Positions 1-16,898 of a DNA stretch of 64,000 nt are shown one piece after another. The stretch is from Dehalococcoidia bacterium. GTDB taxonomy: Bacteria; Chloroflexota; Dehalococcoidia; Lucifugimonadales; VXLM01. The notes beneath the pieces are model-generated. The model did no database searches and was not told the DNA's origin. It saw only the letters and a program-made list of their open reading frames with translations. How positions within the stretch are numbered: position 1 is the stretch's first letter; every line of letters begins with the position of its first letter. The stretch spans positions 969-64,968 of the forward strand of contig DAOUJF010000004.1 in assembly GCA_034423035.1 (NCBI GenBank), read 5' to 3'. A program made the position numbers and the translations under genes.

Positions 1-3000
1 GCTCAGAAGCCCGACAGCGAGGTCTATCCCCGCGTGTGCGGGGGAACCGCTGATAATCGTGTCTGGGAACGCTGACGGCGGGGTCTATCCCCGCGTGTGC
101 GGGGGAACCTACACCACGGTTCGAGACAACCCGGGCAATCAGGGTCTATCCCCGCGTGTGCGGGGGAACCGTTCGAGCCGAACGGCCCAATGAACAGTCC
201 GAAGGTCTATCCCCGCGTGTGCGGGGGAACCCAGCGTGTAAATGCGCGGCTCGGTTCTGTATAAGGTCTATCCCCGCGTGTGCGGGGGAACCCGTTCCGA
301 TGTACTTGGTCTCTCCGCTAGGGCCGGTCTATCCCCGCGTGTGCGGGGGAACCGAGTACAACGATCTGCCAACGGCGGCTGCTCACGGTCTATCCCCGCG
401 TGTGCGGGGGAACCTTGGGTGTGCCGTTGTCAAATCCACATCCCGCAGGTCTATCCCCGCGTGTGCGGGGGAACCGCCGCAGAGTAGGTCAGCACGAGGG
501 ATGCGCCGGGTCTATCCCCGCGTGTGCGGGGGAACCCAGAACGGCTCGCTGTCGACGCCGCTTGGGACGGGTCTATCCCCGCGTGTGCGGGGGAACCTGC
601 TGCGGACGGCCCCCTGCTCGGTTCTGGTAGGGTCTATCCCCGCGTGTGCGGGGGAACCGTGACCGCGTCGCGCTTCGCTTTTCTTCGTTGAGGTCTATCC
701 CCGCGTGTGCGGGGGAACCTAGGCGGGCTGGGCGTGATGTCCGGCAGAATGAGGTCTATCCCCGCGTGTGCGGGGGAACCTGGTAATTCCAATACGCGGG
801 TCGGCGTTCGTGCGGTCTATCCCCGCGTGTGCGGGGGAACCTTCGGTATGTGGATTCTTGGGGCGGTCGTGTCGGGTCTATCCCCGCGTGTGCGGGGGAA
901 CCCCCTCGATGCTCTCGGAGAACGCCCATAGCAACGGTCTATCCCCGCGTGTGCGGGGGAACCACCTGACGCCAATGGTTGCCAGCGTCCGCCCTGGGTC
1001 TATCCCCGCGTGTGCGGGGGAACCGGCGCGTGGGAGGTGGCCTGCGTATGGCTATCGGGTCTATCCCCGCGTGTGCGGGGGAACCTCTCATCCATCGTGT
1101 AGCCCTTGGCGGCAAGCTGGTCTATCCCCGCGTGTGCGGGGGAACCGTCCGTAACGCCCATTTCAAACCCCTCGAAAGGGGTCTATCCCCGCGTGTGCGG
1201 GGGAACCGTGGATACAGTCTTCCGGAACATACCGGGAGCAGGTCTATCCCCGCGTGTGCGGGGGAACCCTGGATCGCTCGGATGCGACGCTCCGCAGCCG
1301 CGGTCTATCCCCGCGTGTGCGGGGGAACCTCATGTTTTCGCAAGTTGCCGCCCGATGATCCAGGTCTATCCCCGCGTGTGCGGGGGAACCGAGTAGCGGG
1401 ACATGGAACTCATGCGCGATGGGGGTCTATCCCCGCGTGTGCGGGGGAACCGAGTTCAAGGTTGCCGGGAGCGGGTAGGTCGACGGTCTATCCCCGCGTG
1501 TGCGGGGGAACCTGCACGGGGGAGTAGTACTGTCCCTCCGGAGGCGGTCTATCCCCGCGTGTGCGGGGGAACCTCCTCGACAGGATACCGGGGGGTATCA
1601 GTATGGGGTCTATCCCCGCGTGTGCGGGGGAACCTCATCAGCCCAGAGATAAATTGCCCCTGAAGATGGTCTATCCCCGCGTGTGCGGGGGAACCCGCTC
1701 AGCGAATCCCGCTGCCTCAACGATGGTGGGTCTATCCCCGCGTGTGCGGGGGAACCCGTTGTTGTGCCGTCCGCGCGTGGTGCTCTCGGGGTCTATCCCC
1801 GCGTGTGCGGGGGAACCGTGAACACTTCCAACGAGGGCATAGTGAACGTCGGTCTATCCCCGCGTGTGCGGGGGAACCCTCACGTTGATTGGGAGCGGCG
1901 GCGTTGTCGTGGGTCTATCCCCGCGTGTGCGGGGGAACCGCTCTTCTGCTGGGGGGCGCGTTCATAGCAATGGGTCTATCCCCGCGTGTGCGGGGGAACC
2001 TACAACAGGTACGTCCAGGCCGCAGCTGGGCGCGGTCTATCCCCGCGTGTGCGGGGGAACCCCTAGATATGAATACAGCGGCTTCTGCCCACAGGGTCTA
2101 TCCCCGCGTGTGCGGGGGAACCATGGATGAAGAATTCAGGACAGCGTGGAAGACGGGTCTATCCCCGCGTGTGCGGGGGAACCTGTCCGGGCGGCGCGGC
2201 CTCGCTGATCAGCCCGGGTCTATCCCCGCGTGTGCGGGGGAACCCCTCAGCAAGATATCATTCAGGTTCAGGAACCGGGTCTATCCCCGCGTGTGCGGGG
2301 GAACCTTTAAGGGACTGGAGGATGTTCTGGGGGCGACGGGTCTATCCCCGCGTGTGCGGGGGAACCCCAGGTGGCGGGTGTGACGTATACGACGTCATAG
2401 GTCTATCCCCGCGTGTGCGGGGGAACCACAAGACCCCTAAGGGGCTGACGGCTGAACAGAGGTCTATCCCCGCGTGTGCGGGGGAACCAAAAGGGTAAGG
2501 GCTGGTGGCACGTCTACCGACGGTCTATCCCCGCGTGTGCGGGGGAACCCAAAAAGGCTTGTTCGGCCTCATAATCCGCAACGGTCTATCCCCGCGTGTG
2601 CGGGGGAACCCCTCCGGTGCGTCCTCCTGGGAGCGGCGCTCCGGGTCTATCCCCGCGTGTGCGGGGGAACCTGAATGGGAACTTTCAAGGCGGGAAGCGC
2701 ATGGGGTCTATCCCCGCGTGTGCGGGGGAACCTTCGCATCCCAAGGGAGCATGGACACGTTCTAAGGTCTATCCCCGCGTGTGCGGGGGAACCTGAGAAC
2801 CGCTTCACTCACCCTGTATGGACACGGGTCTATCCCCGCGTGTGCGGGGGAACCACCGCCGTGCTCTGCAATAACTGTGTGCTCATCGGTCTATCCCCGC
2901 GTGTGCGGGGGAACCGTTCCCAAGCTATTAGTGCCACCAAAGACCTTAGGTCTATCCCCGCGTGTGCGGGGGAACCCCGTCAAGGCTAGGCGTATACGGC

Positions 3001-4135
3001 GAATAGTGGGGTCTATCCCCGCGTGTGCGGGGGAACCTCGAGCTTCCCCGACCAGTTCAACGAGGCCAACGGTCTATCCCCGCGTGTGCGGGGGAACCCG
3101 TCGTCGGCGTCGACGGCGCGTCCTACCATTGGGTCTATCCCCGCGTGTGCGGGGGAACCAGATGTATCGACGGTGCCATAGGTGCCGCTCACGGTCTATC
3201 CCCGCGTGTGCGGGGGAACCGCTCGGTGCGAGTGTCACAACGTACTCTTTCAGGGTCTATCCCCGCGTGTGCGGGGGAACCGGCTTCGGCGGCATCGTAG
3301 GGAATCCATCAAGCGGTCTATCCCCGCGTGTGCGGGGGAACCTTCCTCTGGTGACGGCCTTCACGTCCATGTAGAGGTCTATCCCCGCGTGTGCGGGGGA
3401 ACCACTTCCGGTCTTCGTCGGCGAACTGGATACCCTGGTCTATCCCCGCGTGTGCGGGGGAACCTTCTCAGACACGAGAAAGAGCGCGTCCGAGTACGGT
3501 CTATCCCCGCGTGTGCGGGGGAACCCAAATAGCACGCCATCCAGACGTACCTACCACAGGTCTATCCCCGCGTGTGCGGGGGAACCCGCCATATCAGTCC
3601 TCCTATGACCGAGTGTAAAGGTCTATCCCCGCGTGTGCGGGGGAACCGTAATAGCCCACGTCTCAGAAGCAGTCACGTACGGTCTATCCCCGCGTGTGCG
3701 GGGGAACCAAGCGGTCAGCCGTCTCGACCTCAAATTCAAGGGGTCTATCCCCGCGTGTGCGGGGGAACCAAGTCCCCTTGGTGGACGGTGTAGAGCGGGA
3801 TGGGTCTATCCCCGCGTGTGCGGGGGAACCATGTCGTACCGCACTCGGACGGCGTTCATACCGGGTCTATCCCCGCGTGTGCGGGGGAACCAGCGCGGCA
3901 GATAGACAACGCATCTCTAAACGGGGTCTATCCCCGCGTGTGCGGGGGAACCGCTACAACTATCCGCGCGGGTCTCTCGCGCGAGGGTCTATCCCCGCGT
4001 GTGCGGGGGAACCTGGATTGGTCGTGGTGAGGTTCCTGTTACTGAGGGTCTATCCCCGCGTGTGCGGGGGAACCAGCAAGCGGTTCACGAAGGGATACAG
4101 TGAGAGGGGTCTATCCCCGCGTGTGCGGGGGAACC
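1..4135 (-). CRISPR. Type I-E CRISPR array with 68 identical repeats in the window; the array continues past the left window edge
   Basis: The 28-nt core ggtctatccccgcgtgtgcgggggaacc on + (sense on -: GGTTCCCCCGCACACGCGGGGATAGACC, hairpin CCCCGC-ACAC-GCGGGG) starts at 21+61k for k=0..67. I checked it at 21, 82, 631, 1241, 1851, 2461, 3071, 3681 and 4108. The 33-nt inserts are unique. The cas2 gene and an AT-rich leader at the 4136 side set transcription on the - strand. Confidence 0.98.
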
Positions 4136-4186
4136 TCTTGCTAACATAATAGAGTACGTCAGTTATTATTCACAAATCGAATACTG
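4136..4186 (-). promoter_or_regulatory. CRISPR leader (51 bp between the cas2 stop and the first repeat) with a candidate sigma70 promoter
   Basis: AT-rich stretch. On the - strand, TTGTGA (4170-4175), N18, then TATTAT (4146-4151), ending about 10 nt before the leader-proximal repeat. Confidence 0.45.
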
Positions 4187-8184: not shown

Positions 8185-8802
8185 CTATTGGTTTTCGGTG
8201 TCGTCAGGCTGCGAACGACGCTGAGCCCGGAAGTATTCACTGGCGATGCGACGGCGCGCGATTTCAGCTGATTTTTCAAAGTCCCCTTCATCCCGAATCA
8301 AGCTTGCCATTTCTTTCCAGTCGAAAGACACGTTAGAGGCGGCCAGCATCCGGAACGTCCTGGCCAGCAGCGAGCGAAACATTGGCCCTCGCGCAGTCAA
8401 GAGACGGTTGAGGCGAATCTCGCTGTAGAAGCCTTTCTCCCTAGTATCAGCGTCCCCAAGGTACAGCGCTCGCCCCACCGGCGTATAAGGGTCGTGAGCG
8501 TAACGCGTGTTCCCATCCCCTCGACTTGTCGGCGTCATCAAGGCAATTCCATGCAAGATCAGACCCCACTTCGGTTCAACCTTGCGGCCCCTGAACCGAT
8601 CTTCATGCTGGACCATTATTTTCCAGAAGACGGGCACATCGTAAGCGTCCGGGTCCATTCGACGGAGCTCGGCGAGGTCACCGGGCCTATACAGTTTTGG
8701 CGATGCTAGCTTTTGCGCAACATCGACAGCGACTTCACCCCAACTCTTAAGTTGTTCCTGCTGTGTTAATGCGCCGTTCCCCGGTGGATAAGTTGTCATC
8801 AT
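8185..8802 (-). CDS. cse2: Cse2/CasB (Cas11e) small Cascade subunit
   Basis: 205-aa helical protein between cas8e and cas7. Overlaps the cas8e 3' end by 56 nt, so the start is uncertain. Confidence 0.8.
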   Translation of the reverse strand: MMTTYPPGNGALTQQEQLKSWGEVAVDVAQKLASPKLYRPGDLAELRRMDPDAYDVPVFWKIMVQHEDRFRGRKVEPKWGLILHGIALMTPTSRGDGNTRYAHDPYTPVGRALYLGDADTREKGFYSEIRLNRLLTARGPMFRSLLARTFRMLAASNVSFDWKEMASLIRDEGDFEKSAEIARRRIASEYFRAQRRSQPDDTENQ

Positions 8803-10396
8803 CTACTCCTTTTTCGGTGAATAAGGAAGGCAGTCCATGGTTCCCGCGTATGCGGCCCTCGAACAGTCCTTCGGCACGGACGCGGGCTTTGTAACGCTCG
8901 ATCTCAGGACACGGGAGGGAGTCCATGGCGTCGGCCAGAACCAAGCGCGCACGGTTCACCACGTCCCTCTGCCAGTTATTGCGGATGCGCTGTCGTTCAT
9001 CCCTGTCATGGGCCTTGAACTCGGCCTGAAGGTGTTCGAAGAATCGGACATCCACGATCTCGTCCAGCTGATTCAGCCAGGGACGTGCGAGATTTCGATG
9101 CTCTCGGCTGACTTTGTCGGTCTCGCCTCTGCCCAAGAATATCTGAATAGCGTGGCTGAGTATTCGTTGAACCTTATCAACATCTTCTATGCGGTCATTG
9201 GCAACCTCACCCAAGGCTCTTAGTGCGCCAGGTCTCCTCATGGCATCCGGGTTTAGCGGGATCACACGCTCGGCATATCCTTCCGTCATCCCGTGCTTCC
9301 AAGTGTTGCGTTTCAAACTCCGTGCTACCAACAGGGTGTGAGAGTGCTCCTCCGTATACGTAGACTCTAGCAATATTGGGTGGTTCCACGAGGCCAGAAA
9401 ATGGGATATCCGCTTATACATGAATCCTGTTGGCCCAACGTTCAAAGCCATTCCCTGGTCATCAACGGGCGTCCATGGGTCGCCCGTTCTGCCTTGTTGT
9501 GTCTTGTTGATCCTCGGCACCTTAGAGTTGGCTAGTACAGCCAGCAGTTGACCATTGTCCACACGCAGTCGGACACGGCGACATATCTCGATGTAAAAGG
9601 GATCAACGTGACGGAGCAACTCGCCTTCATCACCATGCCATGAACAGAGCCAGAGGAGTGCAAGTCCGTTGTCATTGAACTGTCTAGTGTTTAAGACCTC
9701 CCCGCGCCGTTCCAACAGTACTGATATGTCCCGCTGGACATGGAGACCCCATCTAAGGACGCCTTCTTGCTCGCAGGGGGCAAGCGAGAACGCTGGACGT
9801 GCGGAATACGCGCTTCGGATTCTGGAGACTGAATAGTTACCCTTGCCATCCTGAGCGGCCCCTGTCTGGAGACTGATCAAGGTGAATATCCAGTCGTCGA
9901 CTTGGACGGACGATGCGACAGCTGACTTCACGTCGTGGTTCTTGGACGTAACGAGCATGTCTAGTTCGTCAGGAGTATATACAGGCTGTTTTTTGCCGTT
10001 CTCGGGTTCGTATCTCCCCTTCTTGTTTTCGTACAGGTACTCTGACAGCTTATCGGCCGAGAGCGCCGGCGGCTGCATGAAGGCGGGCAAGGTGATGTCG
10101 TCAACCACGAGCTGCCAGGGTTCGTCGTCGGGGTAGGCGGGCGTGAGGCCGCGAATGATCTCAGCCCACTCCGTCGGATCGGCCGGAGGGGCGTTCACGC
10201 CCGCCCTGTGCATCGCCATGACACCGAGTTGTACGAGGAAGGCGTGCCATGTGTGCCGATGGTGCGGCCGGAGGGCGGGGAAGGCGTCCACCTCGTCCGC
10301 CATGAGCGCGGCGTAGACTTCCGGCAGGGAGATTTCTACGCGGGAGCCGTCGGACTTGTCCATCCTAATCAAACGCTCGGTCAGGATGTTGTACAT
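8747..10396 (-). CDS. cas8e: Cas8e/Cse1 (CasA) large Cascade subunit
   Basis: 549 aa with a Cse1-like N-terminus (MYNILTERLIR…FPALRPHHRHTWHAFLVQL). GGAGAGG Shine-Dalgarno site 7-8 nt upstream of the ATG. Confidence 0.9.
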   Translation of the reverse strand: MYNILTERLIRMDKSDGSRVEISLPEVYAALMADEVDAFPALRPHHRHTWHAFLVQLGVMAMHRAGVNAPPADPTEWAEIIRGLTPAYPDDEPWQLVVDDITLPAFMQPPALSADKLSEYLYENKKGRYEPENGKKQPVYTPDELDMLVTSKNHDVKSAVASSVQVDDWIFTLISLQTGAAQDGKGNYSVSRIRSAYSARPAFSLAPCEQEGVLRWGLHVQRDISVLLERRGEVLNTRQFNDNGLALLWLCSWHGDEGELLRHVDPFYIEICRRVRLRVDNGQLLAVLANSKVPRINKTQQGRTGDPWTPVDDQGMALNVGPTGFMYKRISHFLASWNHPILLESTYTEEHSHTLLVARSLKRNTWKHGMTEGYAERVIPLNPDAMRRPGALRALGEVANDRIEDVDKVQRILSHAIQIFLGRGETDKVSREHRNLARPWLNQLDEIVDVRFFEHLQAEFKAHDRDERQRIRNNWQRDVVNRARLVLADAMDSLPCPEIERYKARVRAEGLFEGRIRGNHGLPSLFTEKGVDDDNLSTGERRINTAGTT

Positions 10397-10447
10397 AGGT
10401 CAGCCTCTCCTAATCGCTCATTCGTTTCAAGGAACGGACGTGCTATT

Positions 10448-10627
10448 CTATGGGTATTCTTTCGATCTGTCAAACTTTTGTTCCGCTTTGGGGGCGAGGA
10501 TCTCGATCGTGGACCGGATAGTCCTGCACTCATAGCTGAGTTTGTCGTATCTATCTTTGGCTTTGGCGAGTTGTGCTTCTTTGCGCTGCAAGATATTCTC
10601 AAGTTGATGGGGCGGTGCTTCTGCCAT
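10448..10627 (-). CDS. Untracked 59-codon ORF, possible first gene of the Cascade operon: MAEAPPHQLENILQRKEAQLAKAKDRYDKLSYECRTIRSTIEILAPKAEQKFDRSKEYP
   Basis: Hand-translated from the - strand; it falls below the 60-aa ORF-track cutoff. GGGAG lies 5-6 nt upstream of the ATG. It is ~33 nt downstream of the predicted TSS of a near-consensus promoter and 51 nt upstream of cas8e. Against coding: A/T-ending codons (6 of 7 Lys codons are AAA), unlike the flanking cas genes. Confidence 0.4.
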   Translation of the reverse strand: MAEAPPHQLENILQRKEAQLAKAKDRYDKLSYECRTIRSTIEILAPKAEQKFDRSKEYP

Positions 10628-10666
10628 ATCATCTCCCTAATCTGATATAGTACATTTAGTTCAAGC

Positions 10667-10695
10667 ATTATCTATAATTCTCCGCCCAGAGTCAA
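10667..10695 (-). promoter_or_regulatory. Near-consensus sigma70 promoter for the small ORF and cas8e operon (Pcas)
   Basis: On the - strand: TTGACT (10690-10695), 17-nt spacer, GATAAT (10667-10672). A perfect TATAAT on the + strand (10673-10678) lies directly next to it, giving back-to-back -10 boxes. Confidence 0.6.
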
Positions 10696-10698
10696 GAG

Positions 10699-10775
10699 AC
10701 GTCTCTCGCCCACGCGAGAATAGACCCGCCTGCACCAACCGAACGCAGGTTCCCCCGCACACGCGGGGTCATCGT
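10699..10775 (+). ncRNA. Degenerate mini-CRISPR / crRNA-like unit: psiR1 (10699-10726), 21-nt psi-spacer (10727-10747), psiR2 (10748-10775)
   Basis: psiR2: the first 21 nt equal the sense repeat GGTTCCCCCGCACACGCGGGG and the last 7 nt are unrelated. psiR1: 20/28 identical, the last 7 nt ATAGACC are intact, and the hairpin is kept as TCTCGC-CCAC-GCGAGA through two compensatory pair changes. The unit is oriented opposite to the main array and the cas operon. Confidence 0.6.
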
Positions 10776-10792
10776 CCACTGGGGCTGTGTCG

Positions 10793-13498
10793 TTAGGCGC
10801 GGCGCAGTCCCATACGGTCGTACACGAAGCTCTTGTCGCCGACCGTGAACGTGAAGCCGCCGTCGACAAGCTTGGGCTCTGCGGTAACGTCGCGATTGAT
10901 AGTAACACCCGCCAACCAGCGACAGGGAATGAGTATGGTGTCGATGAGGCCCCGATCGAAGGGACTGATGTGGGGTGGACTCATAAGCACATCAAAGGGC
11001 TCGTCACTTAAACGTGTGCGGATGTTTTCTTCCGAAGAAGGAAAGCGTAGTTTTCGGTTTTCTCTTCGCGGATAGAACGCCTTGTCGCGTGGTATGACGC
11101 TGTAGCGAGCCTCCTGACCGTCAGCGTCACGTCCCCCCACCACATTTTGGCCATGAACTACCCACTCTTGCCCTAGTTTCTCGATTTCTTCCAGCGCGTC
11201 GGGATGGGTCGCGCGCTCGACGAGTTTGCGATTCATTTCTGGGATGCGCCATTCGGGATGTTCGCCGATCAGCCGCCGCGTCGCCTCCAGTATCCGAAGG
11301 TCCTCGTACACGTATCCCTTTGGTCCGAGGCCGTTGGCGTGTTTGCCGTCGGTTAGAAGCGGCTCAAGGTCGTTGTCGGGAGGCGTGAGGACGATACAGG
11401 TGGGGTTGGCGTAGTCGCAGGGCCGGTCGGTGTTCTTGTGTCGGTGGAGGCGTCCGATGCGCTGGAGGAGAACGTCTACGGGGCACAGGTCGGTTATGAG
11501 CAGGTCGGCGTCGATGTCGAGGGACTGTTCGAGCGTCTGGGTGCCGACGACGACGCGGCCTCCTGACTCCCGGCCCTTGCCGAGCATCTGCTCAACGCGC
11601 TTATCGAGCATCGCGCGGTCGCACGCGGCGAACCGCCCGTGATGCAGCGTCGTCTTCCTCCTGACGTCGAACAGTAGTCCCCTATCACCCTCTCCGGCCA
11701 GGTCTTCCAACGCCTGCTGAGTCTTCACGGCGTGGTCGACGGTGTTGCGGACGACCAGCACCTTCGCACCCGTGCGTGCGGCAATTAGCGCGCGTTGTGC
11801 GGTGTCGGCGAAGTCGCGCATGGTCGGGCTCGCCTTGATAGACACGCTCTTTTTCTGGTCGTTCACGCCCGCAGGCACGAGATTTTCGCCCGCGCCGCTT
11901 GGTGTGCTTACGGCGGGGTATCGAGCGCGAATGGCCTCATCGAGAGGGGGACCGCCGCCTTCCGTCCTCTCACCATGATGCAGCCAGCGATGGCGAGCGG
12001 TAGAACCGAGTGTTGCTGACATGAGCAGAGCGTAGCCGCCTGCGCCGACGTGGGCGTCAAGCACCGCTTCGAGAATGACGCTCATGTAGGTGTCGGATGC
12101 GTGCACCTCGTCGATGACGAGCAGATTGCGCGCGAGGCAGGCGGCGCGCATGTGGGCGTTCTTGACCTGGAGCGCGCCCATCATCGCCTGATCGACCGTG
12201 CCGACGGCGATCTGCGCGGCAAGGTAGCGCTTAGGATTCCTTGATGCCCATGGTCTGTCGTCGTCGTGGTGACCGGACGCTGCATCATTGTAGTTGGGCA
12301 TCTCGACACGAGCGGCGTCCACGCCCGGTTCATAGCCGGGCACGGCGAGCACGACCGGGGGAGGACCTTGTGGGAAGAGGTTGCGAGTGAAGCGCTTGAC
12401 ACGTTCGTGAATCTGGACAGCGGCGGAGCGGGTCGGCAGGGCGAAATAGAGGCCGTCCACCAACCCTGCCTCGTACAAGCGGGCGAACCGCCACAGCGCG
12501 GCTTCCGTCTTGCCGGAGCCCGTCTCCGACTCGATGATAACCAGGCGCTGGTCAAGTGGAGCTTGGCGAACGGTCTCCTGAATCGCGTTGGGCGAACCGT
12601 CTATGTTGAACAGATCGACGAAATCGGGCACGCCGTTGAAGGTGCATCTTTGGTCGGACAGGTCGAGGCCAATTCCCGAGATGGCTCGTGACGCACTTGC
12701 GCGGGCGATGTCCATATAGTCGTCACGCGGCTGATCACAGTACTCGAAGTAACGTTCGTCGGAACCGACCCAATCGGCCCAGTTGCACAGCCCAAGGAAC
12801 ATGTGCTGGAAGGCGGGAGCGGAAGGAAGAGGCGATCCTCCCGGAGCGAACGCGGCAGGGAACCAGCAACGCAGCAGCCCCCCGATGTGCCGAACGCAGT
12901 CCTCGGGGTTCAGATCGCCGAACTTCCACCAGATGCGAGGGTTCTCGTTCAGGTCGCCATCCAACTGCAAGGGGCTGCCGTGATGCGAGAGCGTAGCCAC
13001 CAGCATCGCGCAGACCGTCTCGCCAGCGCGGTCGTCCCATGACTCTGTGGCGTCGAACCACCACCCCAGCGCGTCGAAGAACCAATCCGCGGTCATTTCA
13101 TCTTTCTGTGTCAGAACCGGAGTCAAGGCCGAGGTGTGGCCGACGCGACGAAACTCCACAGGCTGCCGCCCACCCGGCAGGTCCTCGGACCTCCATATCT
13201 GTGTCTGAAACCCCATGTTTACCTTGCCGATGTCGTGGAGGGCCGCGAACACGGAGAGTCGGGCTATGAGCGACTCATCGAGGTCGTCACGGCCGCCGGT
13301 TGCCGCAAGCCGTTTTCTGATGGTCGGTTGGCGCATCAGCGCCTGGAAGCAGGCCCCGACGTCGGCGAGATGGTACTCAAGCCGGTGGATGCGTCCGGGA
13401 TTTTCTCGGTCCGACTTGGCCCAGTGGCGTCGGGTATAGGACAGGCGTGGCTTTCCCTCCGTCATCTCGGTATTCCTCTCTTGTCTCATGCGGAGCAT
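10793..13498 (-). CDS. cas3: Cas3 HD-nuclease/helicase (type I-E)
   Basis: 901 aa. N-terminal HD domain (…HLADV…LHDIGKVN…), helicase motifs (ETGSGKT, VIDEVH). An alternative start at 13465 (MTEGKP…) has an upstream GAGAGGA. Confidence 0.95.
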   Translation of the reverse strand: MLRMRQERNTEMTEGKPRLSYTRRHWAKSDRENPGRIHRLEYHLADVGACFQALMRQPTIRKRLAATGGRDDLDESLIARLSVFAALHDIGKVNMGFQTQIWRSEDLPGGRQPVEFRRVGHTSALTPVLTQKDEMTADWFFDALGWWFDATESWDDRAGETVCAMLVATLSHHGSPLQLDGDLNENPRIWWKFGDLNPEDCVRHIGGLLRCWFPAAFAPGGSPLPSAPAFQHMFLGLCNWADWVGSDERYFEYCDQPRDDYMDIARASASRAISGIGLDLSDQRCTFNGVPDFVDLFNIDGSPNAIQETVRQAPLDQRLVIIESETGSGKTEAALWRFARLYEAGLVDGLYFALPTRSAAVQIHERVKRFTRNLFPQGPPPVVLAVPGYEPGVDAARVEMPNYNDAASGHHDDDRPWASRNPKRYLAAQIAVGTVDQAMMGALQVKNAHMRAACLARNLLVIDEVHASDTYMSVILEAVLDAHVGAGGYALLMSATLGSTARHRWLHHGERTEGGGPPLDEAIRARYPAVSTPSGAGENLVPAGVNDQKKSVSIKASPTMRDFADTAQRALIAARTGAKVLVVRNTVDHAVKTQQALEDLAGEGDRGLLFDVRRKTTLHHGRFAACDRAMLDKRVEQMLGKGRESGGRVVVGTQTLEQSLDIDADLLITDLCPVDVLLQRIGRLHRHKNTDRPCDYANPTCIVLTPPDNDLEPLLTDGKHANGLGPKGYVYEDLRILEATRRLIGEHPEWRIPEMNRKLVERATHPDALEEIEKLGQEWVVHGQNVVGGRDADGQEARYSVIPRDKAFYPRRENRKLRFPSSEENIRTRLSDEPFDVLMSPPHISPFDRGLIDTILIPCRWLAGVTINRDVTAEPKLVDGGFTFTVGDKSFVYDRMGLRRA

Positions 13499-13530: not shown

Positions 13531-14109
<579 letters not shown>

Positions 14110-15430: not shown

Positions 15431-16606
15431 TCAGCCGCTAGGAGCGACATAATCTGCCCATGCCTGCATCAGGGGACGTCGTTCGGTGTACCAGTCCGTC
15501 CTAGCATAGGCCCGTTCGGTTGTGTTCCCTACTTGATGTGCTAGAGCTGCTTCCGACGCTTCCCACGAAGCACTTGTCTTTTCCACTGCCCACGTCTTGA
15601 ACGCGCTACGGAAGCCGTGAGCGGTCGTCTTATCCACTAGGCCCACGTCTCTAAGCACCTTCAAGAGCGCCATGTCCGAAAGCATGCCGCCACGCTTGCG
15701 CGGGGACGGGAAGATTAGGCCCTGTCCCTCGTTTAGACCCCACGCTTCTCTGAGAACCTCAACGGCCTGAGCGCTCAGGGGTATCCGATGCGGCCTTCCC
15801 GCCTTCATCTTGTCTCCGGAGATCTCCCAAACTCGCCGGTCAAGGTCGATTTCTTCCCAGGTCGCGGCCCGCGCTTCCGCGTTTCGGGTAGCGGTCAAAA
15901 CCATGAAGCGGAAGCTCAAGCGAGTAGCGTCGGAGGCGTTCGACCGTTTGACCGTCTCAAGCGCGTCAGCTACGTTGGAGTAGGGAAGTGCTCTAAAGTG
16001 TTGCTTTATCGCGGGTTGGGGAATGAGCGCAAAGTCCAGCGCATCCCCACATGGAGTGTTTTCGATGTACTCATTCCCAACACACCATCTGAAGATAGCT
16101 CGCATCTTTTGAAGCACGCGACGACCCTGTTCAGGTGTGCGTGTCCAGATAGGCCTTAGACACTGGATAACGTCGCGTCGAGTAATTTGGTCGACGGGCA
16201 CACGCCCAAGCGATGGGAAACAGTGCTTTTCGACGGCCTGCAACCACTGCCTAGCATGCTTCTCCGAGCGCCAACGCGGTCGCAAGGCTGCATGAACGGA
16301 GATAGCGGCCTCTCTGAATGTCGGAATGGTCGGAGCCTTTCGCTCCTGCTCGGTTGCTGCCTCGCGTTCTCTTGGGTCGATGCCGTCTGTAATCAAGGCC
16401 CGATTTTCTGCGCATCGTTGCCTTGCCTGAGCAGGTGACACATCGGGGAATCGTCCGAGTCCCAAATCCCGTCGCCGTCCATTAACCGTGATGCGGTGCA
16501 ACCAATTCTTGCTTTTGGTCTTGGTGACTACGAGGTAGAGGCCCGCCCCGTCCGCATATCGCCCCGGCTCCCGGAGCGACCGGATTCGTTTAACTGATAG
16601 CTTCAT
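15431..16606 (-). CDS. int: Tyrosine-type site-specific integrase (P4-like, N-terminal arm-binding domain)
   Basis: 391 aa. N-terminus …YADGAGLYLVVTKTKSKNWLHRITVNGRRRDLGLG…; C-terminal catalytic region …HGFRSAFKTWA…ALAHQVGN…AYAR. Adjacent to the 3' end of tRNA-Trp. Confidence 0.92.
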   Translation of the reverse strand: MKLSVKRIRSLREPGRYADGAGLYLVVTKTKSKNWLHRITVNGRRRDLGLGRFPDVSPAQARQRCAENRALITDGIDPREREAATEQERKAPTIPTFREAAISVHAALRPRWRSEKHARQWLQAVEKHCFPSLGRVPVDQITRRDVIQCLRPIWTRTPEQGRRVLQKMRAIFRWCVGNEYIENTPCGDALDFALIPQPAIKQHFRALPYSNVADALETVKRSNASDATRLSFRFMVLTATRNAEARAATWEEIDLDRRVWEISGDKMKAGRPHRIPLSAQAVEVLREAWGLNEGQGLIFPSPRKRGGMLSDMALLKVLRDVGLVDKTTAHGFRSAFKTWAVEKTSASWEASEAALAHQVGNTTERAYARTDWYTERRPLMQAWADYVAPSG

Positions 16607-16821: not shown

Positions 16822-16898
16822 TGGCAGGGGTGGCAGGATTCGAACCCGCGGCCTACGGTTTTGGAGACCGTTGCTCTACCAGCCTGAGCTACACCCCT
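16822..16898 (-). tRNA. tRNA-Trp (anticodon CCA), 3' CCA encoded
   Basis: The reverse complement folds as a cloverleaf: acceptor AGGGGTG/CACCCCT, D arm GCTC…GAGC, anticodon arm ACGGT-CTCCAAA-ACCGT, T arm GCGGG-TTCGAAT-CCTGC, then discriminator G and CCA. Confidence 0.9.

Follow-up and report, generated by a model that had tools for sequence, protein, structure and literature searches.

A small gene with a predicted coiled-coil product lies behind a guide-matched promoter in CRISPR-Cas loci of type I-E

[quoted passage not shown] Here we describe this small gene, its conservation and its pairing with the putative guide, in a window of 64,000 nucleotides (nt) (assembly GCA_034423035.1, contig DAOUJF010000004.1, positions 969-64,968), to which all coordinates refer. 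cas8e is followed by cse2, cas7, cas5, cas6e, cas1 and cas2 and then by a 68-repeat array, from which we took the repeat consensus and inferred the protospacer-adjacent motif (PAM).

10448..10627, minus strand: small ORF, 59 amino acids (aa), ATG start, translation MAEAPPHQLENILQRKEAQLAKAKDRYDKLSYECRTIRSTIEILAPKAEQKFDRSKEYP
10633..10637, minus strand: Shine-Dalgarno site GGGAG, 5 nt before the ATG (10627-10625)
10667..10695, minus strand: promoter P1, TTGACT-17-GATAAT, 10/12 matches; TATAAT or CATAAT in relatives
8747..10396, minus strand: cas8e/cse1, ATG at 10396, downstream neighbour of the small ORF
10793..13498, minus strand: cas3 (HD nuclease and helicase), upstream neighbour of the small ORF
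21..4135, CRISPR RNA (crRNA) sense minus: main CRISPR array, 68 identical 28-nt repeats, period 61

The small gene and its product

A first-pass annotation of this DNA had proposed a 59-codon minus-strand ORF with a strong Shine-Dalgarno site, a near-consensus promoter giving a leader of about 33 nt, and a 51-nt gap to a cas8e gene with a Shine-Dalgarno site of its own. These particulars were borne out: the ORF listing contains the frame with an identical translation, a start about 7 nt after the -10 box of P1 leaves a leader of ~33 nt, and 51 nt separate the stop codon of the small ORF (which ends at 10448) from the cas8e ATG, itself preceded by AGGAGAG.

The product belongs to a small family. 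A search of 5.8 billion proteins gave four homologues with 67-86% identity, and a profile made from these matched 24 proteins at E<=1e-3 among 1.84 billion cluster representatives, 23 of them 49-92 aa long and matching from their first residues; the family thus comprises some 24 clusters at 50% identity. The gene occupies the gap between cas3 and cas8e of a type I-E locus in every one of the 13 other loci with readable context; in 12 of them it lies 38-91 nt upstream of cas8e, and in the remaining one (locus L032) it is inverted.

Frame conservation and synonymous bias, two of the checks that the first-pass annotation had called for, both favour translation. Of 13 sequences from the orthologous intergenic regions, 12 keep the annotated frame open, and the remaining five frames total 13-54 stops; mean pairwise identity over 50 ungapped codons in 13 DNA-derived sequences is 0.58, 0.64 and 0.49 at codon positions 1, 2 and 3; and the ratio of nonsynonymous to synonymous substitution rates (dN/dS) is 0.25-0.56 among the six closest loci. 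Distant family members are alike in protein and not in DNA, with indels in-frame only. Most relatives have a GGAG(G) at a comparable distance, including those in which the DNA around it has changed. In L002 and L004 the upstream DNA and the first ~15 codons have diverged to ~50% identity; kept nonetheless are a Shine-Dalgarno site (AAGGAGG), the ATG and precisely the number of codons up to the core, with synonymous differences in QLAKAKD.

Lysine codons are AT-biased, as the first-pass annotation had noted, with AAA at six of seven positions against 6 AAA and 13 AAG in cas8e, and the GC content is 0.49 against 0.56. That annotation had read the bias as a possible mark of recent acquisition, an idea we abandoned on finding AT-biased codon usage common to the whole small-protein family. 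The rare AGR codons are also enriched in the ORF family; they are scattered rather than tandem and show no positional conservation.

A contrary explanation is that the ORF is untranslated and forms a 5' leader carrying regulatory DNA (two promoters and the guide target), its frame being a by-product of nucleotide conservation. Nucleotide conservation in the six close loci does run past the stop codon into the spacer and cas8e, a second promoter-like site (P2, described below) overlaps the ORF end, the third-position bias among close relatives is small, and L004 carries a frameshift. Weighing more heavily, to our minds, are the likeness of distant members in protein and not in DNA, the codon-position order of 2 > 1 > 3, the in-frame indels, the retention of Shine-Dalgarno site and start codon where upstream DNA has diverged, the existence of a single open frame, the placement of conserved residues on a heptad seam, and the want of any RNA structure signal or Rfam match. 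We therefore consider an untranslated leader very improbable. The related proposal of the first-pass annotation, a 5' untranslated region or leader peptide, is disfavoured by a core conserved to 31-43% identity and by the varying distance to cas8e. In our judgement the 59-codon ORF is very likely a translated, conserved gene.

Other sources of conservation were considered. The predicted fold of the small-ORF mRNA is not unusual (z=+0.56), which rules out structured RNA as the cause, and Rfam gave no matches on 10300-10900. Low synonymous divergence (dS) as a sign of an overlapping element specific to the ORF was rejected, since the high-identity block continues ~200 nt into cas8e. A 95-aa alternative-frame ORF (10381..10668) and an antisense ORF (10208..10645) are both interrupted by stops in relatives.

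The family alignment is ungapped over residues ~8-46, with the consensus L-x3-L-x2-KE-x-QLAKAK-x2-YD-x-L-x2-EC-x-T-L/I-RS-x-I-x-IL, and the tails are unrelated in sequence and length. In distant members the amino-acid core is 31-43% identical, so that the family is conserved far less than Cas8e, at 53-66%. AlphaFold2, run with a 26-sequence alignment and also with 5 sequences, predicts a single helix over residues 6-44 at a predicted local distance difference test (pLDDT) score of 97-99, followed by a low-confidence tail; residues 45-59 are variable and predicted to be disordered. Heptad positions a are taken by L9, K16, A23, L30, I37 and L44 and positions d by L13, L20, Y27, C34 and I41, from which we infer that the conserved residues form a coiled-coil seam. 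The core is probably one long alpha-helix with a five-heptad hydrophobic seam that would assemble into a coiled-coil oligomer.

Searches of Pfam, PADLOC, PHROGs, NCBIfam and Protein Data Bank (PDB) sequences with the ORF or its family gave only weak coiled-coil noise. A metagenome scan with the ORF alignment returned no matches, a viral-contig scan with the family found nothing, and tblastn against phages and plasmids gave nothing meaningful. With no phage, plasmid or viral-contig relatives, there is no sign of the phage origin proposed for CreP. The papers that we consulted make no mention of this small-protein family, and it is named in no source.

The mini-CRISPR and its match to the small-gene promoter

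The first-pass annotation had also placed a crRNA-like element back-to-back with the ORF and had likened the pair to CreTA. The element is indeed present, and its spacer-like sequence matches the ORF promoter beside a PAM both in the window and in all relatives. Its parts, and the predicted target, are as follows.

10699..10775, plus strand: degenerate mini-CRISPR, creA/creR-like (psiR1-psiS-psiR2), back-to-back with the small ORF
10699-10726, plus strand: psiR1, 20/28 identical to the repeat, ATAGACC 5' handle intact, hairpin kept through two compensatory pairs
10727-10747, plus strand: psiS, 21-nt spacer-like sequence CGCCTGCACCAACCGAACGCA
10748-10775, plus strand: psiR2, first 21 nt identical to the repeat (21/21), last seven 1/7, handle lost and hairpin kept
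10650..10669, minus strand: predicted binding site of Cascade (CRISPR-associated complex for antiviral defence) with the crRNA-like RNA; PAM AAT, which is the last 3 nt of the -10 box, then GCTTGAACTAAATGTAC

Every small-ORF locus that we read contains such a mini-CRISPR. In 12 loci psiR1 keeps handle and hairpin and psiR2 the hairpin only, with many different hairpin sequences; the psiR1 hairpins vary between loci yet always pair, through many compensatory changes, beside an invariant ATAGACC. The repeats of the window are those expected of a CreA/CreR-type crRNA-like RNA, in which psiR1 would supply the handle part and psiR2 the Cas6 hairpin part.

Type I-E Cascade tolerates mismatches at every sixth position, as a survey by Shmakov et al. 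also remarks (10.1101/2023.03.03.530964). Pairing was scored over psiS positions 1-17 without 6 and 12, giving 15 scored positions, and a local test compared the best match beside an AAN PAM in the 120 nt upstream of the ORF with those of 5000 shuffled spacers. The first ~17 nt of psiS match a site beside an AAN PAM that lies upstream of the ORF start by 26-54 nt, on the -10 box or just past it. In L003, for example, the 17 nt after the 8-nt handle (GCCTGCACCAACCGAAC) match TATAAT|GCCTGCACTAACCGAAC at 16 of 17 positions, so that the target begins immediately past the P1 -10 box with AAT as PAM. Scores by locus are given below (distant denotes family members at 31-43% identity).

Window: 11/15, PAM AAT, mismatches at 3, 9, 13 and 15
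L001 (= L006), close relative: 14/15, PAM AAT
L002, close relative: 13/15, PAM AAT, only with a 1-nt register shift
L003, close relative: 14/15, PAM AAT
L004, close relative: 14/15, PAM AAG, psiS entirely different
L005, second I-E locus on the same Dehalococcoidia metagenome-assembled genome (MAG) chromosome as L001/L006: 12/15, PAM AAT
L007, distant: 13/15, PAM AAT
L008 (L008/9), distant: 12/15, PAM AAT
L010 (L010/11), distant: 11/15, PAM AAC, seed match perfect, first 12 nt with mismatches at 6 and 12
L012 (L012/13), distant: 15/15, PAM AAC, mismatches exactly at 6, 12 and 18
L014, distant: 13/15, PAM AAT
L015, distant: 14/15, PAM AAT
L032: 14/15, PAM AAT, ORF and P1 inverted
L096, distant: 13/15, PAM AAT, by eye, mini-array inverted

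In 12 of 13 loci, the window included, at most two of the 5000 shuffles (0-2) reach the observed score, and in the window itself none does. Across each 8-12 kb locus the promoter site is the best non-self match of psiS in eight of the nine relatives scanned. Guide and target co-vary: there are about eight unrelated psiS sequences, each matching its own promoter. Across the 68 array units, the nucleotide that stems from PAM position -1 is C in 33, G in 17, T in 15 and A in 3, which lends independent support to AAB PAMs and fits the AAT, AAC and AAG seen at the targets.

Two rearranged loci indicate what the guide follows. In L032 an inversion has turned the ORF and its targeted promoter away from cas8e, which is served by a promoter of its own (TTGACT-17-TACAGA), and psiS still matches the promoter of the small ORF; in L096 it is the mini-array that is inverted, with the match to the promoter again present. 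With pairing intact through both rearrangements, the guide evidently follows the small gene and not cas8e.

A naive scan of the whole 64-kb window with psiS gave background matches only and missed the target site, because the window target is degraded; the site emerged only through the relatives. Judged from these alignments, the small-ORF promoter is quite probably a target of Cascade and the crRNA-like RNA in this clade. That repression is effective in the window itself is a prediction we hold with lower confidence.

Two further points concern these elements. A perfect TATAAT on the plus strand (10673-10678) adjoins the P1 -10 box (10667-10672, minus strand) with no fitting -35 box, and a single AT-rich core, open to occlusion by Cascade, could be common to the divergent promoters of mini-array and ORF; the sole hit for a mini-array promoter, scoring 9/12 and located at 10604..10632 (plus strand), is not conserved. 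Also, the cas3 gene of L002 (3081-5725), the locus whose psiS needs a 1-nt register shift, is split into several frames, as would be seen in a decaying locus or with long-read assembly errors.

Relation to cas8e, distribution and known systems

The promoter scan found three sites in a 650-nt region against 0.3 expected from shuffles. Besides P1, one of these concerns cas8e directly:

10445..10473, minus strand: promoter-like P2, TTGACA-17-TAGAAT, 11/12, overlapping the last codons of the ORF, with the stop codon inside the -10 box

P2 is conserved in five close relatives, and L012 and L015 have independent sites between the ORF and cas8e (TTGACG-17-TAGTAT and TTGACG-17-TAATAT); no P2-like site was detected in L007, L008 or L010. 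These sequences suggest that in most loci cas8e can probably be transcribed without P1. Read-through from P1 into cas8e is also likely, because no terminator-like site lies between the two genes.

Such an arrangement bears on whether the guide serves the small gene or Cascade. Plain CreR autoregulation of the Cascade operon would make the small protein a harmless accessory first cistron that aids Cascade in assembly or stability or regulates cas or array expression. This explanation is consistent with an ORF that is co-directional with cas8e, 38-91 nt upstream of it and without an intervening terminator; with L007, L008 and L010, in which P1 would be the sole cas8e promoter; with the weak guide-target matches tolerated in the window, L005, L008 and L010; with a hydrophilic protein unlike known toxins; and with the documentation of CreR for type I-E. 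It sits poorly with L032, where the promoter matched by the guide serves the small ORF alone and points away from a cas8e with its own promoter, with a near-consensus P2 in the window clade and its counterparts in L012 and L015, with the many related I-E loci that work without a gene in this slot, cas3 abutting cas8e, and with a family identity of 31-43% against 53-66% for Cas8e. We regard an accessory cistron, the chief alternative, as rather unlikely, in either the assembly or the regulatory version. The first-pass view of the ORF as first cistron of the Cascade operon stands only in part: the ORF does lie directly upstream of cas8e across a short gap without a terminator, but an autonomous guide-controlled gene better accommodates P2 and the inverted L032. 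The gene is present in a single one of 80 more distant I-E loci.

Those 80 loci came from a Joint Genome Institute (JGI) metagenome scan with the Cas8e alignment, their Cas8e being 34-53% identical. The family hidden Markov model matched just one of them, L032 (E=6e-6), with its gene opposite in strand to cas8e, and in many of the others cas3 abuts cas8e directly in the canonical arrangement; I-E as such can therefore do without the small gene, which is restricted to a clade. The only genes conserved alongside it are the cas genes.

The Dehalococcoidia MAG OY759598.1 (a 4.1-Mb chromosome) bears two I-E loci, L005 and L001/L006, with identical psiS; their small ORFs are 98% identical in nucleotides against only 67% for cas3 and 82% for cas8e, which makes mosaics of these loci, and either guide could act on both promoters. 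In four related loci a ribbon-helix-helix (RHH) antitoxin and a ParE/RelE-type toxin are encoded between cas3 and the mini-array (L008/L009, 4194-4653; L014, 206-665; L096, 3225-3687; L032, 1917-2421), which puts a classical toxin-antitoxin pair and the guide-controlled small ORF side by side. Unrelated small ORFs hold the same slot in other mini-array-bearing I-E loci, encoding a Cys-rich zinc-ribbon-like peptide in L019 (2731-2925) and L030 (~193-378) and a different product in L025 (2766-3000). By eye, psiS matches an AAT-flanked site at 13/15 just past the -10 box in L025 and ~55 nt upstream of the -35 box in L019. The cas3-cas8e slot may thus host diverse guide-controlled small genes.

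The design recalls several known systems. In CrePA (creA plus creP) of type I-F in Acinetobacter baylyi ADP1, creP encodes a KilA-C protein in the cas3-cas8/csy1 gap (10.1101/2024.01.05.574328). Shared with it are the intergenic slot, the two-repeat mini-CRISPR with a psiS matching ~17-19 nt of the adjacent small-gene promoter beside the subtype PAM, and a gene family almost confined to that slot; as in CrePA, a small gene in the cas3-cas8 gap has a promoter that is the predicted target of the CreA-like guide. The differences are the subtype (I-E, not I-F), a ~59-aa single coiled-coil helix with no KilA-C match in Pfam, PHROG, NCBIfam or PDB, a target that abuts the -10 box only ~40 nt from the ATG, and an ORF that is usually co-directional with cas8e without a terminator.

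Closer in subtype is CreR of Salmonella enterica type I-E, a stand-alone mini-array that targets the cas8e promoter (10.1101/2023.03.10.532045), and a survey by Shmakov et al. likewise describes I-E mini-arrays targeting that promoter as stand-alone (10.1101/2023.03.03.530964). The likeness extends to the mini-array between cas3 and cas8e, a psiR1 with 5' handle and a psiR2 with hairpin, and a promoter lying upstream of cas8e that is matched in part, next to an AAG-type PAM. Here, however, a conserved protein gene stands directly behind the targeted promoter in 14 of 14 loci, the L032 target goes with the small gene rather than cas8e, and most PAMs are AAT or AAC.

CreTA of Haloarcula hispanica type I-B and the bacterial I-F CreTA are type VIII toxin-antitoxin systems, in which Cascade-guided CreA represses a strong promoter followed by a strong Shine-Dalgarno site and a short ORF inside the cas operon, much as predicted for our locus. 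CreT acts as an RNA, its mini-ORF sequestering a tRNA through tandem rare codons, whereas here 45 residues are conserved as amino acids with codon positions in the order 2 > 1 > 3, which does not resemble an RNA toxin. In the type I-C CRISPR-supervised immune systems (CRISIS), a crRNA-like RNA in the cas operon represses the promoter of neighbouring cargo (10.1101/2024.12.27.630466); that cargo consists of multi-domain defence enzymes, in contrast to the single very small helical protein of our I-E locus.

CreA-controlled protein toxins are known from I-F alone (CreP), and for I-E only stand-alone CreR autoregulation has been reported. Such a design has precedents in other CRISPR subtypes, though none with this protein and none in type I-E. 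Having neither homology to CreP nor the stand-alone character of CreR, the locus represents a distinct variant of the creA-creP-like arrangement.

A possible role for the small protein, and neighbouring features

On balance, we favour the interpretation that this is a conserved small coiled-coil protein gene whose promoter is kept off by Cascade with the adjacent crRNA-like guide, an effector being the likeliest role of the protein. Processing by Cas6e, repression and the role of the protein are drawn here from the published behaviour of CreA and CreR. According to this model, the small ORF would be transcribed from P1 and the mini-CRISPR on the opposite strand would yield a crRNA-like RNA, which Cas6e would cut at both hairpins to leave an 8-nt 5' handle, ~20 nt of psiS and a 3' hairpin. 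Once loaded with this RNA, Cascade would bind the AAT-flanked site from within the P1 -10 box over the start site. With a short psiS and pairing of only ~17-20 nt, it would block RNA polymerase without licensing Cas3, so that repression would proceed without cleavage. The small protein would then be made only when functional Cascade is scarce, whether through loss, titration by many crRNAs or the action of an anti-CRISPR; read-through from P1 would also raise Cascade synthesis, with P2 as a guide-independent basal promoter for cas8e. By analogy with CreP and CreT, the protein would be a CRISPR-repressed effector that causes growth arrest or alarm upon Cascade failure.

How far that analogy reaches is a more tentative matter. 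A toxin or alarm effector is one possible identity of the protein, which we put forward with some reserve. The family of ~50-68-aa coiled-coil proteins might, equally tentatively, be the I-E counterpart of CreP and CreT, silenced by Cascade and freed by anti-CRISPRs or gene loss. Once freed, such a protein could conceivably bring about growth arrest, abortive infection or back-up defence, by a protein-protein mechanism unlike those of known CRISPR-associated toxins.

Several observations pull the other way. In 13 of 14 loci the ORF reads in the same direction as cas8e without an intervening terminator, an arrangement equally to be expected of a plain first cistron, and its product is hydrophilic and matches neither a known toxin nor any family in Pfam, PADLOC, PHROG, NCBIfam or PDB. 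Of all the guide-target matches, that of the window is the weakest (11/15, with a seed mismatch at position 3) and no better than random matches elsewhere in its locus; L005, L008 and L010 are modest (11-12/15), and L002 fits only with its shift of 1 nt. Repression in the window may accordingly be leaky, given the weak match and the GATAAT -10 box, which is awkward for a potent toxin; such control would suggest either that the protein is not highly potent or that the circuit of this locus is decaying. The promoter scan assigned no promoter to the mini-array with confidence. As to coding, the codon-position signal is weak among the six close loci alone (22, 23 and 31 changes). The high-identity block that holds their low dS runs from codon ~15 to ~200 nt inside cas8e and is consistent with a recombination tract, so this low dS is not usable as coding evidence. 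Finally, the frameshift of L004 stems from one additional A within an A5 run, the contig being labelled 4x, and is likely a sequencing error.

Alternatively, the gene may be another kind of Cascade-supervised cargo, such as a small anti-phage or anti-anti-CRISPR factor or a transcriptional activator of a second defence layer, non-toxic to the host and induced upon the disabling of Cascade in the manner of CRISIS. The same guide-target evidence would serve, crRNA-like RNAs that supervise diverse defence cargo have been reported for I-C, and other small ORFs hold the same slot (Cys-rich in L019 and L030; with a matching mini-array in L025). Nevertheless, a 39-residue helix with a disordered tail bears no enzymatic or DNA-binding signature, PADLOC gave no match of note, and no partner gene besides the cas genes is conserved, so we think this improbable next to a Cascade-silenced effector.

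Our findings fit into a recent and growing theme of guide-RNA promoter control by CRISPR effectors, which includes CreTA, CreR, CrePA and CRISIS. They provide a conserved protein-coding partner for a regulatory mini-array in type I-E, the best-studied subtype, in a family whose known members all lie between cas3 and cas8e, in I-E loci that are relatives of those in a Dehalococcoidia MAG. If the protein is a toxin or signal, it would add a new anti-anti-CRISPR safeguard, offer I-E tools a compact switch under Cascade control, and exemplify how much function is hidden in ORFs below annotation cut-offs. If it is merely an accessory cistron, it would still be an unrecognised I-E-associated gene.

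Some neighbouring features of the locus deserve mention. Divergent from cas3 is a gene for a 180-aa DnaQ-like DEDD 3'-5' exonuclease of the RNase_T family (13567-14109, plus strand), which also adjoins cas3 in L001-L004, L008, L012 and L015; it may represent, in stand-alone form, the nuclease that trims prespacers as Cas2-DEDDh in other I-E systems. On the array side, only 51 AT-rich nt (4136-4186) separate the cas2 stop codon from the first repeat; for I-E such a leader is unusually short, provided that no leader signals reach into cas2, and the 68-repeat array itself extends past the window start. About 2 kb past cas3, a P4-type tyrosine integrase gene (15431-16606, minus strand) adjoins a tRNA-Trp gene (16822-16898, minus strand), and such an integrase is also found upstream of cas3 in L001; the entire I-E CRISPR-Cas locus may ride on a tRNA-integrated island.

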